In this document: positions 4,886 through 33,664 of the stretch, piece after piece
Layout: each line of letters starts with the position of its first letter
How positions within the stretch are numbered: the stretch's first letter is position 1
Origin: Candidatus Cloacimonadales bacterium
GTDB taxonomy: Bacteria > Cloacimonadota > Cloacimonadia > Cloacimonadales > JAIOQZ01
NCBI GenBank assembly: GCA_963665815.1
Contig: OY762463.1
Location: forward strand, 2,688,001-2,752,000
Direction: 5' to 3'
DNA: 64,000 nucleotides
The notes under the pieces: generated by a model
Told to the model about the DNA's origin: nothing
Databases searched by the model: none
The model's input: the letters and a program-made list of their open reading frames with translations, nothing else
Translations under genes and position numbers: made by a program

Positions 4886-5056
4886 TTACATTTCAAGTGC
4901 TTCAACAGGGCATGAGCTTACACATGCACCACAATCAACACATGCATCACCGTCAACTTTAACGACGTCTCCGTCCATTTCTAAGGCACTTACAGGGCAT
5001 GTACCAACACATGCTCCGCAACCAACACATTTAGTTTCATCAACTTTTACTGCCAT
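4886..5056 (-). CDS. 2[4Fe-4S] clostridial-type ferredoxin, 56 aa (absent from ORF track)
   Basis: Manual translation MAVKVDETKCVGCGACVGTCPVSALEMDGDVVKVDGDACVDCGACVSSCPVEALEM; two CxxCxxCxxxCP motifs; AGGAGGA RBS upstream. Confidence 0.93.
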   Translation of the reverse strand: MAVKVDETKCVGCGACVGTCPVSALEMDGDVVKVDGDACVDCGACVSSCPVEALEM

Positions 5057-5516
5057 TGGTTCCTCCTTGTGTTATTTGTGGCAAAGAATACGATTTAATA
5101 ATTGTCTGTCAATAATTATTGAAGTTCATAACTGCTTTTTTTTGTTAGTGTAATGAAACTTTGGTCGTATTATAGTATAGCTAAAATATTTAATCTGAAC
5201 ATATTCCATCCTTAAGTGAATCTGACAGAAGCTTAGCTTAATAAAAACAGGATTGAAAATTTGAACTTAAGCCGACATGTATTTCAACTCAGTATATAAT
5301 TGATGTTGTGTGTTAAGTAGTTCTTATCCTATAGTAATATATATTTGGTTGGTATAATATTGATTGTTTTTACATTGTAGGGAAAAAAGCAGAACTTCTG
5401 AGCATTTACTAACTTGAGATTGTTCATGAATAAAAAACAAAAGTAATATAAGAATAAAAGGTTGACAGACTTAACTTATTTGTTTTCAATTATATAAAAT
5501 TTGAAAGGAGTCAAAT

Positions 5517-28196: not shown

Positions 28197-28302
28197 TGCA
28201 TGTCAAGAATATTCTTATTCAGTATTTTATTTCTTTGACATTATTCACAGCATAATTCATATTTAGATAATTCCATAAAAGTACTATTCCTCAGGAGGAA
28301 AA

Positions 28303-28674
28303 ATGTTGAGACCATTTATTAGTAATAATATAGTTTTTGCAATTGCTGTACTATTTATAGTTATAACAGGATGCAGTAGTATTAAACATGCCGAATCGGA
28401 CAACAAGCCAAAGCCATACAGCCCTGAAACACATATTGATTTTATTGTAGAAGCTGTAAACAATTCTCCTGTACAAGTAAAACTAGTAATTTACAATCTT
28501 ACAGGAGAAACTGTATTAAATCTTGTTGATGAAATGAAATATCCTGGAAAATATTCTGTTAAATGGGATGGCAAAGGCCATAATGGTGAAAGCCTTAAAT
28601 CCGGAGTGTATTACTATATAACCTATATAGGTGGAAAAGAAGTGGAGAAAAAGAAATTAGTGCTACTGAAATAA
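28303..28674 (+). CDS. Lipoprotein consisting of one FlgD-Ig-like C-terminal-sorting-type domain
   Basis: Lipobox ITGC; PKPYSPETHIDF...IYNLTGE...WDG...SGVYYY...KKLVLLK. Confidence 0.75.
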   Translation: MLRPFISNNIVFAIAVLFIVITGCSSIKHAESDNKPKPYSPETHIDFIVEAVNNSPVQVKLVIYNLTGETVLNLVDEMKYPGKYSVKWDGKGHNGESLKSGVYYYITYIGGKEVEKKKLVLLK

Positions 28675-28693: not shown

Positions 28694-29368
28694 ATGCTGA
28701 GACTCTTTATCAGAAAGGACATATCCCTTGCAATAATATTCTTGGTGAGCGTTTCAATCGGGTGTAGTGCTAACGACCAGACAAATTGCTACAGCCGACC
28801 TAATCCGTTCAGTCCTCAAACATCTATTAATTTTTCTGTTGAATCCCCTGAAAATTTACCTGTTCCTGTTAAAATAGTAATCTATAATCCGGAAGGAAAA
28901 CCTGTCAGAGTACTGATTGATGAAAAGAAATTACCGGGAAAATACTCAATTAACTGGGATGGCAAAGATGATAATGTGGAATTGCTTGATGCGGGAGTAT
29001 ACCTTTTCAAGTTGGATATAGACGAAAAAACAATCAGAAAAGGCAAGATGATACACCAGATCTGGGATAAAAAAGAGAGCGATCGACAAGTTAGGGAAAA
29101 TTCATATCCAGTATCTTCATCCAAAACTGCTAATTTTGTGATAAATCAACAGAATGAAAATCCCGTAGATATTGTAATTGAGATTTATGACACTGAGGGT
29201 GAACTGATTCATACAATTGAACGTAAAGAGCTGGCATCAGGGAGTTATACAATAAACTGGGATGGACTGACAGATGATAACCATAAAGTGGAGCAAGGGT
29301 ATTATTTCTGGAAGTTGATAATCGATGGAAGGATTGTGAAGAAGTCCAAATTCTATCTGGAATATTGA
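28694..29368 (+). CDS. Lipoprotein with two tandem FlgD-Ig-like domains
   Basis: Lipobox SIGC; PNPFSPQTSI...IYNPEG...WDG...GVY, second IYDTEG...WDG...GYY. Confidence 0.75.
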   Translation: MLRLFIRKDISLAIIFLVSVSIGCSANDQTNCYSRPNPFSPQTSINFSVESPENLPVPVKIVIYNPEGKPVRVLIDEKKLPGKYSINWDGKDDNVELLDAGVYLFKLDIDEKTIRKGKMIHQIWDKKESDRQVRENSYPVSSSKTANFVINQQNENPVDIVIEIYDTEGELIHTIERKELASGSYTINWDGLTDDNHKVEQGYYFWKLIIDGRIVKKSKFYLEY

Positions 29369-30487: not shown

Positions 30488-30598
30488 ATGTTTTAAATGA
30501 TCTTCTGAATTATATAGATTTCCTTTGATTAATATATTGACACATACTGCAAACTCCTGTTTTATTTACTATGCATTAACGACTTACCGGAGGTTAAA

Positions 30599-31378
30599 GT
30601 GAAGCGTTTTTTATTAATCTTTATAGTATTACTGTGTCTTGTTGCAATGCAGAGATCTATCTACAAGATCAATCCTTATACGTGTGACGGGTGCGGCAGG
30701 TGTGTATTTGAGTGTGATAATAATGCAATAATTGCAGACTCCCTTGGATTTTACATTGATGAATCTCTTTGCGATGATTGTGGGGACTGCATTTCCACAT
30801 GTATTTCCAATGCAATCTTTGTCAGGGATGGTCGTGTAAGAATTAGCGGAACCATATTTTCATCATCAACAAGTTTTTACATATCCGGAGCAGTCATTAC
30901 TATTGATTCGGTAACAGTAAACACTGACAGATTTGGAAACTATTACCACGAGCTGAACCCCGGGATTTATAATATAACTTTCAGTGCTGTTGGTTATCAG
31001 GATTCTGTTATTACTTCACAGCCTTTCGAAGGTGATGGGTGTTATCAATATAACATTACTCTGAATGATGAGAACACAAAAGTAAACAATGTCAGCAAAT
31101 ATACAGAAACAGAAATCAGAGTCTCACCCAATCCTTTCAATCCTGAAACAAATATTGAATATTCCATAGAAACAAACTCACATGTAATAATATGTGTTTA
31201 TAATATGAAGGGTCAGAAAATTGTTACATTGCTGAATAAGCAGGTTCAAGCAGGTAAACATAATATTGTGTGGAATGGGAGAAATCAGAATGGAAAGTCT
31301 TTATCTTCCGGAACATATATGATAAGTATGTCTGTTGGAAATCAAGTAAAAACAGTAAAGGCAGTGTTGTTGAAATAA
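30599..31378 (+). CDS. Secreted protein: 2x[4Fe-4S] ferredoxin-like domain + carboxypeptidase-regulatory-like domain + FlgD-Ig C-terminal sorting domain
   Basis: Hydrophobic signal; CDGCGRCVFEC and CDDCGDCISTC; TDRFGNY..L.PG.Y.I..SAVGY; PNPFNPETNI...YNMKGQ...WNG...SGTY...KAVLLK. Confidence 0.8.
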   Translation: MKRFLLIFIVLLCLVAMQRSIYKINPYTCDGCGRCVFECDNNAIIADSLGFYIDESLCDDCGDCISTCISNAIFVRDGRVRISGTIFSSSTSFYISGAVITIDSVTVNTDRFGNYYHELNPGIYNITFSAVGYQDSVITSQPFEGDGCYQYNITLNDENTKVNNVSKYTETEIRVSPNPFNPETNIEYSIETNSHVIICVYNMKGQKIVTLLNKQVQAGKHNIVWNGRNQNGKSLSSGTYMISMSVGNQVKTVKAVLLK

Positions 31379-31449: not shown

Positions 31450-31517
31450 GAACCTCCGGAATTCGGAGGTTCATGTCTAACTAACCTTTGTTGATCCCGT
31501 TTTCGGGATCTTTTTTT
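31450..31517. terminator. Pair of hairpins between convergent genes
   Basis: gaacctccggaattcggaggttc (preceded by A-run) and gatcccgttttcgggatc followed by T-run. Confidence 0.65.
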
Positions 31518-32014
31518 TAGTTTCGGGCTTTTTGCATTCTTCCTCTTCTTCCAGCAGCAGGTCGGTTAGCGTGAAGTTTTTTAGCTGCTTCTCTCTGTTC
31601 AGGTGTCAAGATTTTGTAAATATCTTCATGAAGGGATATTCTTTTTTTGGCAATTTCAGCCTTTTTGTCGAAAATATTTCCGGTTAAAGACTTTGCTTTT
31701 GAGAAGTCTGCATCTTTCATTGCTTCATGCTTTTCAAGTTCCATTTTCTTTAAATCAGCTCTGAGATCAATCATTTCTTTTTTGTGTTTAATATTAAGAT
31801 CATCAATTTTATTTTGTTGATCTTCTGAAAGGTTGAGTTCTTTAAGGGCAAATCCAAATCCTTCACCATGTCTTTCTCCCATTCCTCTCTGGAAGTTATG
31901 ATGGCCATGTCCTCTTTCCATTTCTGCACAGCCACTTCCAACTTCAACTCCACCTATTGCCATTGCAGTAGTTGCTATAAGCATTATCGCGATAATCATT
32001 GTAATCGATTTCAT
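31517..32014 (-). CDS. Spy/CpxP family periplasmic chaperone
   Basis: Signal peptide; LNLSEDQ and ILTPEQ (LTxxQ) motifs; His/Gly/Met-rich N-terminus. Confidence 0.85.
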   Translation of the reverse strand: MKSITMIIAIMLIATTAMAIGGVEVGSGCAEMERGHGHHNFQRGMGERHGEGFGFALKELNLSEDQQNKIDDLNIKHKKEMIDLRADLKKMELEKHEAMKDADFSKAKSLTGNIFDKKAEIAKKRISLHEDIYKILTPEQREAAKKLHANRPAAGRRGRMQKARN

Positions 32015-32457
32015 TTTCGATTCCTCCTTTTGTTTTTATTATCTCTGATTTTTTTATTAAATCTTTCATTGAAGAACTCTTTGGCTTGTTCAGCAGTCAT
32101 TTCAGATCTGATTGTTATAAGATGTTCTCCAATACTTTTTTCCATTTCTGCTTGAATATTAAGTCCTTGCTGGAATATATATCTTGCTTTTTCAGGCGAA
32201 AAGTTTTCAGATACAAGTTCTTTCATAAATTCTCGTTTTTGCTTTCGATATTCAATCATTCTTTGTCTCGCTTCATGTTTTCCTTCTTCCATCATTTTGT
32301 CCAGACGCGGAGGGTGATGGTGATCTCTGAACTCGAAGCCATCCGGATGTCCAGGATGAGGTGGTCTGTTTTTAATGTGAATTATAGTTGATACGATAAA
32401 TGCAGCATTAAAGCTGATTGATATCAATAGAATAGTGTATAATATTGTCTTTTTCAT
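32011..32457 (-). CDS. Periplasmic heavy-metal-sensor-like helical protein
   Basis: ISISFN TM anchor, His/Pro-rich linker, MTAEQ motif; in ECF operon. Confidence 0.65.
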   Translation of the reverse strand: MKKTILYTILLISISFNAAFIVSTIIHIKNRPPHPGHPDGFEFRDHHHPPRLDKMMEEGKHEARQRMIEYRKQKREFMKELVSENFSPEKARYIFQQGLNIQAEMEKSIGEHLITIRSEMTAEQAKEFFNERFNKKIRDNKNKRRNRK

Positions 32458-32843
32458 TATTCTATTCCTCCAAGCAACGAAACATATGACTCTTGTCCAA
32501 GTGCCAGTTCATAGGTTTCTGAATCTTCGGTAGTTCTTAAGTCACCGAAATATACGCCACCCAGCAAGGCAATCATAACTGAGGCTGCCACTGCCAGACG
32601 ACTGAAAATATGGACTTTTCTTCTCGCTCCTGATGTCTGGGACAGTACTTTATTAACCAGAGAATCTGAGACAGCTTCAACTTCAAAATCATTAAGAAAC
32701 GCATTTACAGAAAGTATTTCGCTGAGTTCCTGTTGACATGCCGAACAGGTTTTCAGATGATCCTGAACTTCTGATGATTGTTTTTCATCAAGTTCATGAT
32801 CTGCGAATGCGTTTAATTTTTCTTTTACTTCTGAGCATCTCAT
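32457..32843 (-). CDS. Zinc-finger (zf-HC2) anti-sigma factor
   Basis: MRC...HLKTCSAC (HxxxCxxC) followed by TM helix. Confidence 0.88.
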   Translation of the reverse strand: MRCSEVKEKLNAFADHELDEKQSSEVQDHLKTCSACQQELSEILSVNAFLNDFEVEAVSDSLVNKVLSQTSGARRKVHIFSRLAVAASVMIALLGGVYFGDLRTTEDSETYELALGQESYVSLLGGIE

Positions 32844-32869
32844 CGTTCTCTCCTTTTTCTTATTTATAC

Positions 32870-33367
32870 TCATACAGTTTGAATTTCCTGCGAAATAATT
32901 TTCTTTAATTTCCTTTTTGCACGAATCAGCAAAGAATCTACGGCAGAAGCGGTTGAATCCATGATATCTGCTATTTCCTTATAGCTCTTCTTTTCGTAGA
33001 ACTGTAGATTAATTGCCTGACTTTCTCGTTCGGAAAGTTCCATCAGAGCTTTTCTTATTTTATCATTTTTGTTTTCTGCAACTCTTTCAGTATACATATC
33101 TTCATCTCCTGAAATGCTGTTATTGATAATATCCTGCTCTTTTTTCTTCTTTTTTGAAGAATGCTTATAGTAGTCAACAATTCTATTATGTGCAATTCTG
33201 TATATATAAGCTGACAGGGTCTTTTCGTCTACTTTGTCATATGACTTATACAAAGATACAAAAACGGATTGGAAGATATCTTCAGCATCTTCTCTATTCG
33301 ATACATTTCGGCTGATGTATCGGAAAATTTTGTTTTTGTATTCCTGAACAGCTTGCTCAAATTTCAT
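32870..33367 (-). CDS. ECF RNA polymerase sigma-70 factor
   Basis: DAEDIFQSVF, YIYRIAHNRIVDY, SYKEIADIM...VDSLLIRAKRKL; start at MKFEQ after GGAG. Confidence 0.92.
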   Translation of the reverse strand: MKFEQAVQEYKNKIFRYISRNVSNREDAEDIFQSVFVSLYKSYDKVDEKTLSAYIYRIAHNRIVDYYKHSSKKKKKEQDIINNSISGDEDMYTERVAENKNDKIRKALMELSERESQAINLQFYEKKSYKEIADIMDSTASAVDSLLIRAKRKLKKIISQEIQTV

Positions 33368-33472
33368 TCTTATATTACTCCTGCCGTGCATGAAAATACT
33401 CCAGAACACTGCAATTTTAAAAAACTTCAATATATAATACTTAATTTTTATTGATATCCTGCAATCTTTTAT

Positions 33473-33502
33473 TTGACAATTTTTGAAAATTTCAATTATA
33501 CT
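33473..33502 (+). promoter_or_regulatory. Sigma70-like promoter
   Basis: TTGACA (33473-33478), 18-bp spacer, TATACT (33497-33502). Confidence 0.6.
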
Positions 33503-33509
33503 ATCTTCT

Positions 33510-33664
33510 GAGAGCTTTGCATAATTGCACAATCAAGCAGCCAGGGAAAAGTATCGATGAGATTTTTGAATTCATCAAGAAATGTCTTCAGAGAAGTTCA
33601 TCTTTGAGTCAGTATTTGATGAATTCAAAAATTGAGTCAGCTACCCCAATAATGCAAAGATCTC
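33510..33664 (+). ncRNA. Candidate structured RNA (rod with central bubble; 6S-like architecture or 5' leader)
   Basis: Closing stem 33510-33527/33647-33664 (16/18 pairs) and perfect 17-bp inner stem 33562-33578/33616-33632; starts ~7 nt after a -10 box. Confidence 0.5.

Follow-up and report, generated by a model that had tools for sequence, protein, structure and literature searches.

A ferredoxin of Cloacimonadota predicted to be exported by Sec and sorted to the cell surface

A 64,000-nucleotide stretch of the genome of a Candidatus Cloacimonadales bacterium (contig OY762463.1, positions 2,688,001 to 2,752,000 of the forward strand; the whole stretch is referred to as the window, and coordinates are those of the window unless otherwise indicated) contains an open reading frame (ORF) of 259 amino acids with a GTG start at 30599..31378 (+). 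Its product, the window protein, is read here as an iron-sulfur (Fe-S) electron carrier that is exported through the general secretory (Sec) route, sorted to the cell surface and loaded with its clusters after export, a reading to which we assign a probability of roughly 0.5. Considered separately, export and sorting are predicted with high confidence, and cluster binding is somewhat favoured. According to the textbook rule, the periplasm receives Fe-S proteins only through the twin-arginine translocation (Tat) system, already folded and loaded with clusters, and the window protein is a new combination of known parts that runs contrary to this rule. By every sequence test applied, it is a member of both the dicluster ferredoxin domains and the T9SS (type IX secretion system) cargo of type A, two groups that to our knowledge have no known overlap. 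The recurrence of the complete architecture in relatives at 26-66% identity places it far beyond chance, and the interpretation of routing and architecture is well founded.

Domain architecture and start of the gene

Domains were called with Pfam and NCBIfam profiles scored against their curated cut-offs. A Sec-type signal peptide is predicted at residues 1-17 (30599..30649, +), with the n-region MKR, an h-region from F4 to A16 and a likely, heuristically placed cleavage near A16/M17. It is followed at residues 22-73 (30662..30817, +) by a 2x[4Fe-4S] clostridial-type ferredoxin domain, which was recognized by Fer4 (37.2 bits, cut-off 21.1, in two stretches at residues 22-44 and 52-73), Fer4_6 (36.4 bits, cut-off 25) and Fer4_9 (28.2 bits, cut-off 27). 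Its two CxxCxxCxxxC motifs, C29, C32, C35 and C39 (30683-30715, +) and C58, C61, C64 and C68 (30770-30802, +), are about 29 residues apart, as the dicluster ferredoxin family requires. The residue after the fourth cysteine is D in motif 1 and I in motif 2, and the usual proline is absent from both. The PDB matches to residues 19-80 had E-values of 3.5e-12 to 2e-4, and the nearest solved sequences were true dicluster modules, namely MvhB polyferredoxin (3.5e-12), HydB C-termini, 1clf (9.4e-6) and 1fdn. With these clostridial-type 2x[4Fe-4S] ferredoxins (1clf, 1fdn) and polyferredoxin modules (MvhB, the HydB C-terminus) the window protein shares a domain of about 55 residues and the same motif spacing. 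Those proteins, however, are cytoplasmic and have no signal, whereas the window protein combines a Sec signal, a spacer and a T9SS tail with the absence of proline after the fourth cysteine.

The spacer is a transthyretin-like CarboxypepD_reg beta-sandwich at residues 82-155 (30842..31063, +; PF13620, 37.0 bits, cut-off 32.3) and contains C148, which is kept in two close orthologs. A poorly conserved linker at residues 156-175 (31064..31123, +) leads to the T9SS type-A C-terminal sorting domain, which occupies residues 176-259 and, with the stop codon, 31124..31378 (+). This tail was recognized by TIGR04183, the T9SS type A sorting domain (residues 175-256 of 259, 33.6 bits, cut-off 23), whose opening is the SPNPFNPETN segment, as well as by Por_Secre_tail (PF18962, residues 176-255, 28.5 bits, cut-off 27) and FlgD_ig (37.8 bits, cut-off 27).

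An AlphaFold2 model built from 12 relatives (mean predicted local distance difference test score, pLDDT, 78.8) contains an N-terminal helix at residues 2-20 and two confident beta-sandwiches, the spacer with strands at residues 80-155 (pLDDT 80-94) and the tail (pLDDT ~90); within the linker, pLDDT falls below 50 at residues 160-168. In Foldseek searches the spacer matched the transthyretin-like domain of carboxypeptidase D (5aq0_B; TM-score 0.84 normalised to the target, root-mean-square deviation 1.5), and the C-terminal domain matched PorU (6za2) and the RgpB C-terminal domain (5ag8). No ferredoxin was among the Foldseek matches listed for the whole model, most of which covered the beta-sandwich and the tail. 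Because these two domains dominate the matches, the ferredoxin identity rests on sequence. In the ESM Atlas, for clusters of at least 50 members, the nearest clusters had only CarboxypepD_reg or tail domains, and none was listed with Fer4.

The database copy of the window protein, P0001, has 243 amino acids, starts at the internal Met17 and is therefore without the signal. If this public call were right, the product would be a cytoplasmic fusion of a ferredoxin and a beta-sandwich, or a decaying chimera without function. A search for near-length homologues among 5.8 billion clusters, which returned only three full-length members, would agree with such a chimera, and a region search among longer proteins found no homologue. 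Nevertheless, this explanation appears very improbable. A Shine-Dalgarno sequence, GGAGG (30589..30593, +), is located 5 nt ahead of the GTG, and at the corresponding position the same-genus ortholog shows GGAGG and then ATG. The 17 N-terminal residues upstream of the P0001 start region are 65-71% identical in two close orthologs, and the substitutions stay hydrophobic. A signal-like N-terminus is found in 11 of the 12 aligned proteins of the long form described below, the twelfth (P0032) starting later in the hydrophobic stretch, and in all 15 aligned N-terminal sequences (alignment A3). Moreover, intact ORFs occur in 25 genomes, and a sorting domain would be senseless on a cytoplasmic protein. 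The upstream GTG is taken as the right start because of the Shine-Dalgarno sequence, the ortholog's ATG and GGAGG at the same site and the hydrophobic N-terminus conserved in relatives, supporting the view that the public gene call is too short. Automatic annotation from Met17 would thus hide the export signal of the window protein. The possibility that the window protein is an orphan was ruled out by an exhaustive representative search.

Export signal and sorting machinery of the host

The host genome, that of a Cloacimonadales bacterium, is closed, 3.96 Mb in size and 98.7% complete. An iterated search for the sorting tail found it in 178 stop-to-stop ORFs of this genome, at the extreme C-terminus in 171 of them. 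Among these 171 tagged ORFs, 160, including that of the window protein, can start with a positively charged n-region and a strongly hydrophobic stretch, and the other 11 are for the most part fragments or ORFs with an unclear start. The N-terminus of the window protein consists of MKR, an n-region of only three residues with KR rather than a twin-arginine, and a hydrophobic core of 13-14 residues. The hydrophobicity of this core (3.79, mean Kyte-Doolittle value over 11 residues) is the highest of the 160 tagged proteins, whose median is 3.02. This top rank may be due to chance. The idea that a very hydrophobic signal marks co-translational export as a family trait was dropped, because the values of the relatives centre at about 3.0-3.1 by eye, like those of other cargo.

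Searches for TatC (PF00902) and TatA (PF02416) gave no matches in the closed genome, and the same searches were positive in 11 and 12 of 14 control genomes. Of 151 sampled Cloacimonadota genomes, 3 (G075, G099 and G134) have TatC, with full-length matches of 193-234 bits. For the window protein a Tat route is thus excluded rather than merely unlikely. With no TatA or TatC in the genome and no twin-arginine in the protein, the known export route for cluster-loaded Fe-S proteins is absent, not just unused. A comparison can be made with the periplasmic ferredoxin subunits exported by Tat (the class of NapG with NapH, NrfC, HybA and DmsB), which are likewise Fe-S modules with a function outside the cytoplasm; a related cassette (see below) encodes a NapH-like Fer4_5 membrane protein. 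By the textbook account, the NapG/NrfC class carries or hitch-hikes on twin-arginine signals and is exported folded with its clusters, and it is not known to have a T9SS tail. By contrast, the window protein has no twin-arginine, its genome has no TatA or TatC, and its h-region is the most hydrophobic of the 160.

The translocon and sortase-shuttle genes of the sorting route, SprA (461 bits, cut-off 200), PorU (532.6 bits, cut-off 420) and PorV (69.2 bits, cut-off 27), were found in the genome. The layout of the window protein, with a Sec signal, a functional domain and an Ig-like C-terminal domain of about 80 residues, is that of the T9SS type-A cargo of Bacteroidota, including RgpB, HBP35, gliding adhesins and glycoside hydrolases. 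Unlike these, it belongs to Cloacimonadota, where the accessible text of one study describes a T9SS as possibly present (PMC11285876) and the system is so far only inferred. In the literature searched, including the accessible text of that study, no ferredoxin or other Fe-S protein is described as T9SS cargo.

Alternatively, the N-terminal segment might stay uncleaved and act as a tether to the inner membrane. The ferredoxin would then face the periplasm, and the tail would be a plain Ig-like fold that does not work as a secretion signal. The predicted cleavage site (L-V-A|M) is not a textbook AxA site, and a neighbouring lipoprotein (ORF 28694-29368) has FlgD_ig-like domains at internal positions too, both of which would suit a tether, as would the failure to find T9SS motor genes. 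However, the uncharged stretch of the signal comprises 15 residues, compared with a median of 18 among the tagged proteins, and as read this is too short for a stable membrane anchor. In addition, the tail stands at the extreme C-terminus, as in 171 of the 178 ORFs that carry it, TIGR04183 scores above its cut-off, and SprA, PorU and PorV are encoded in the genome. A tether is accordingly considered unlikely, and export by Sec followed by surface sorting is preferred.

These results bear out an earlier note on this stretch, which had described, from the letters and a list of ORFs, a Sec-like signal without twin-arginine directly followed by two CxxCxxCxxxC motifs, a beta-sandwich spacer and a PNPFNP-type C-terminal sorting domain. 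The signal matches those of 160 of the 171 tagged ORFs, the motifs (C29-C39 and C58-C68) lie in Fer4 families scoring above cut-off, the spacer is recovered by the CarboxypepD_reg score, AlphaFold2 and Foldseek, and the tail by TIGR04183. Its proposal that routing does not use Tat is strengthened by the lack of TatA and TatC matches and by the presence of SprA, PorU and PorV. The note's interpretation as a whole, which extended to possible cluster loading outside the cytoplasm and a possible role in extracellular or interspecies electron transfer or metal binding, is partly supported.

The ferredoxin family and its cassette in Cloacimonadota

A HMMER search with residues 1-95 returned 1149 matches at E<=0.001, and the best 150 representatives were sorted by signal type with a script. 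As a result, 40 of the 150 had a Sec-type signal directly ahead of the first cysteine motif (37 under strict criteria, plus 3 whose starts are odd). In 21, a twin-arginine signal, in most cases with a lipobox, preceded 3-10 cysteine motifs, 73 were other ferredoxin modules, and 16 had no cysteine motif and were read as eukaryotic zinc-finger noise. The twin-arginine polyferredoxins include P0011, P0014, P0017-19, P0021, P0024, P0025, P0027 and P0030. From their sequences, these mostly lipobox-bearing proteins are apparently exported by Tat, a counterpart to the Sec-type family in Tat-bearing organisms. The Sec-type members come, where a source name is given, from Cloacimonadota, and in many of them the ferredoxin is preceded, at a distance of a few residues, by a clean cleavage site of the AxA|Q type. 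They show several architectures. The long form (~260 amino acids), to which the window protein corresponds, comprises signal, ferredoxin, CarboxypepD_reg and tail, with all parts present in 8 of 8 proteins scanned, and the short form (~180 amino acids) comprises signal, ferredoxin and tail, with a tail-family match in 9 of 10. Others consist of a signal, a ferredoxin, a low-complexity linker and a second ferredoxin, or of a bare signal and ferredoxin. The window protein thus belongs to a larger set of ferredoxins with Sec and lipoprotein signals in Cloacimonadota.

A profile of the signal and ferredoxin, made from the 15 sequences of alignment A3, was run on the 151 Cloacimonadota genomes. Intact full-profile matches of at least 91 bits were found in 25 genomes from 6 of 15 families, comprising 10 copies of the long form and 15 of the short form. 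The next scores, at most 80 bits and crossing stop codons, were those of ordinary small ferredoxins. A third group, of tagged forms of about 170 amino acids, was found with a three-sequence alignment (A4) at 8 loci in Fermentibacteraceae, Aegiribacteria and other metagenome-assembled genomes. One match in the host genome (C1:16804-17538, to query residues 20-259) was rejected as a homologue, as its ORF has no cysteine motif and matches only the tail and the sandwich.

The eight cysteines are invariant in 12 of 12 (alignment A2) and 15 of 15 (A3) relatives at 26-48% identity, and so are the alanine, isoleucine and glycine positions of the ferredoxin signature. The constraint on each region was assessed as identity between the window protein and two close orthologs, which was preferred to the ratio of nonsynonymous to synonymous substitutions (dN/dS) as synonymous sites would be saturated at 66% identity. 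The ferredoxin domain is the best-conserved part (82-89%), followed by the spacer (67-72%), the sorting tail (57-58%) and the linker (17-33%). The whole protein is 66% identical, compared with 81-93% for the neighbouring envelope-stress genes, suggesting that the window protein evolves fast, like surface proteins, and that its ferredoxin core does not. The earlier note had suggested searching for the combination of ferredoxin and tail and checking the conservation of the cysteine pattern. The combination recurs in the 25 genomes above, and the pattern is invariant in a family found in two phyla. The lack of proline after the last cysteine of both motifs, which it had also pointed out, proves peculiar to the genus; a single CP is retained in P0003, and the majority of relatives have one or both.

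In all 6 loci fetched, the short-form tagged ferredoxin lies inside a tight operon. The first gene of this operon encodes a signal-bearing protein with a C-terminal ferredoxin, the second the tagged ferredoxin, the third a ferredoxin of ~84 amino acids with a signal and the fourth a ferredoxin of ~81 amino acids with a lipobox. The fifth is a signal-bearing ORF of ~400 amino acids with an aromatic C-terminus, a barrel-like candidate for an outer-membrane protein, and the sixth, present in 5 of the 6 loci, encodes a DsbD_2 membrane protein. In 2 of the 6 loci the operon is adjoined by a NapH-like Fer4_5 membrane protein. The host genome has a cassette of its own about 0.8 Mb from the window (C1:3545500-3553300; L085 4555-12308). 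It has no tagged ferredoxin and holds ferredoxins with Sec and lipobox signals, a 735-amino-acid protein with a signal-like N-terminus in which fn3 repeats separate two ferredoxins, a DsbD_2 protein, a cytoplasmic WCGPC thioredoxin, a divergent NapH-like Fer4_5 membrane protein, a barrel-like ORF of 375 amino acids and a signal-bearing DUF1573-rhodanese protein. A cytochrome c assembly gene (PF01578) was searched for in the host genome with no matches, so the DsbD_2 and thioredoxin pair does not serve haem proteins. The AlphaFold2 model of the ~375-amino-acid outer-membrane candidate shows long antiparallel strands after a signal helix at low confidence (pLDDT 54.7), which is consistent with a barrel, and nothing more. 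In one relative (G050), a protein of 820 amino acids (L086 5526-7988, +) is encoded directly upstream of the ferredoxin cassette; we read it as a putative P-type ATPase that carries a CPC motif and, at its N-terminus, two metal-binding motifs.

The related cassette resembles the porin-cytochrome outer-membrane conduits MtrCAB, Pcc and PioAB/MtoAB in that exported redox proteins, a redox lipoprotein and a barrel-like ORF are encoded in one operon, a likeness that is a functional analogy only. It differs from them in that the carriers are ferredoxins, the window protein has no CxxCH haem-binding motif, the host genome has no cytochrome c assembly gene, and the barrel model is of low confidence. 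The genomic context in relatives is the strongest new, though indirect, support for a role of the window protein in electron transfer.

Gene surroundings, cluster loading and implications

A TTGACA hexamer resembling a -35 element (30537..30542, +) was picked out upstream of the gene by reading the sequence against the ortholog. The hexamer and the 12 bases 3' of it are nearly identical in the same-genus ortholog; a consensus scan did not call it as a promoter, and its -10 candidate is weak, so it is at most a putative element. A terminator-like hairpin with a T-run, found by a sequence scan, lies 115 nt past the ORF stop (31493..31518, +). The ferredoxin gene looks monocistronic, because each neighbouring gene lies on the other strand or beyond a gap. 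Downstream, a convergent operon (31517-33532, -) encodes an extracytoplasmic function (ECF) sigma factor, an anti-sigma factor and two LTXXQ / Metal_resist proteins (Spy/CpxP/ZraP-like), and is served by a terminator of its own on the minus strand (31472-31450), separate from that of the ferredoxin. In our reading, the anti-sigma factor is probably of the zf-HC2 type and the two LTXXQ proteins have signal-like N-termini. This operon is conserved beside the ortholog in the same-genus genome at 81-93% identity. Upstream of the ferredoxin gene are an ArsC-type phosphatase and a VOC protein, neither of which is conserved at the ortholog locus.

Also in the window are two small proteins of the lipobox type (28279-28671, +, ITGC; 28694-29368, +, SIGC) that consist almost only of FlgD_ig or T9SS-tail-like domains, one domain in 123 amino acids in the first, and two domains, one of them internal, in 224 amino acids in the second. 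A lipoprotein signal joined to a T9SS-type tail is an odd combination. Apart from the gene of the window protein, there is a single true CxxCxxCxxxC gene in the window (4889-5071, -), which encodes an ordinary small dicluster ferredoxin of ~56 amino acids with AGGAGG before its start and no signal, in contrast to the exported ferredoxin.

Several points weigh against the proposed reading. Concerning export, the signal peptide was called by a heuristic (a charged n-region and a hydrophobic stretch), not by SignalP. GldL and GldM gave no matches in the genome, with the control genomes equally silent, and the highest GldK-like score was 93 bits, below the cut-off of 350; the T9SS of Cloacimonadota, including its canonical motor part, is thus a putative system. 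Concerning the clusters, the ferredoxin-sized unit of the AlphaFold2 model, a small alpha/beta fold modelled without clusters, reaches a pLDDT of only 68-77, and the proline after the fourth cysteine is lost in both motifs throughout the genus. We know of no route for Fe-S assembly outside the cytoplasm, and no extracytoplasmic Fe-S assembly system was identified in this analysis. The DUF1573-rhodanese protein was considered as a periplasmic sulfur donor and dropped, because its rhodanese loop appears to have no catalytic cysteine. Concerning function, the long form stands alone: neither the window nor any of the 4 other long-form loci examined has a cassette gene within ~9 kb, and the window protein appears tied to the ferredoxin cassette by homology only.

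Some of these points would also suit the main rival reading, in which the protein is exported and surface-sorted and its eight cysteines bind another metal (zinc, iron, copper or cadmium, or sulfide and metal ions in the manner of a sink or sensor) or are joined in disulfides, the domain being structural or metal-sequestering. The missing assembly system speaks for this, as does the loss of both prolines in the genus, although CP is kept by most relatives and the twin-arginine lipoprotein polyferredoxins among the nearest relatives suggest that the clade works outside the cytoplasm with clusters elsewhere. A metal-related setting is also suggested by the conserved convergent ECF sigma / anti-sigma operon with its two LTXXQ / heavy-metal-resistance proteins, by the ArsC-type phosphatase upstream and by the P-type ATPase abutting the cassette of one relative, which appears from its sequence to be of the heavy-metal type. 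On the other hand, a NapH-like Fe-S membrane protein is encoded alongside the family, as are DsbD_2 and thioredoxin, which keep thiols reduced and not oxidised. In addition, the ferredoxin is the most constrained domain, and the full ferredoxin signature, including its non-ligand positions, is kept at 26-48% identity. Binding of another metal or disulfide formation is therefore judged rather doubtful.

If the window protein is an exported Fe-S electron carrier, the following sequence of events may be proposed. The pre-protein would cross the inner membrane unfolded via Sec, as its signal and the absence of Tat suggest, and its eight thiols would be kept reduced by the anoxic habitat and by a DsbD_2 and thioredoxin pair such as that co-encoded in the family's cassette. 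Two [4Fe-4S] clusters would then form on the apo-domain in a reducing, iron- and sulfide-rich periplasm or surroundings, either spontaneously from Fe2+ and sulfide or through a further factor. Chemical reconstitution of apoferredoxins from Fe2+ and sulfide is classic. Judging from its membership of the tagged family, the tail would pass the folded protein through SprA, being recognised by the PorV/PorU machinery and processed by PorU. The protein would thereby be placed on or beyond the outer membrane, where the beta-sandwich would hold the ferredoxin away from the surface. There it may act as a low-potential one-electron carrier that exchanges electrons with periplasmic ferredoxins and external partners, as the context of the relatives suggests.

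A wider, tentative and on balance unlikely proposal is that Cloacimonadota and Fermentibacterota, largely devoid of Tat and, in the host genome, of cytochrome c maturation, move electrons across the envelope by iron-sulfur proteins only. Electrons would pass from a NapH-like inner-membrane protein to Sec-exported periplasmic or lipoprotein ferredoxins, through or past an outer-membrane barrel and on to a T9SS-displayed ferredoxin, the window protein, with clusters inserted after export and cysteines reduced by thioredoxin-fed DsbD_2. If true, such a path would provide extracellular or interspecies electron transfer without haem, and would represent the first case in bacteria of an Fe-S maturation pathway located outside the cytoplasm. 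Known extracellular electron transfer uses multihaem cytochromes, pili or shuttles, and Cloacimonadota are abundant syntrophs in anaerobic digesters. Conductive pili have been suggested for direct interspecies electron transfer by Cloacimonadota in the accessible text of a published study (PMC7382037). The full-text literature searched, which left aside subscription journals and supplements, contained no description of a ferredoxin routed by Sec or T9SS.

In summary, the window protein combines a dicluster ferredoxin with a predicted Sec signal and a T9SS sorting tail, and its relatives are spread over two phyla. If its clusters are real, an as yet unknown way of building [4Fe-4S] clusters outside the cytoplasm must exist, and the protein would be a surface redox protein of a new kind. 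A ferredoxin with a potential of about -400 mV on the cell surface would qualify as a candidate for exchanging electrons directly with methanogens or minerals.

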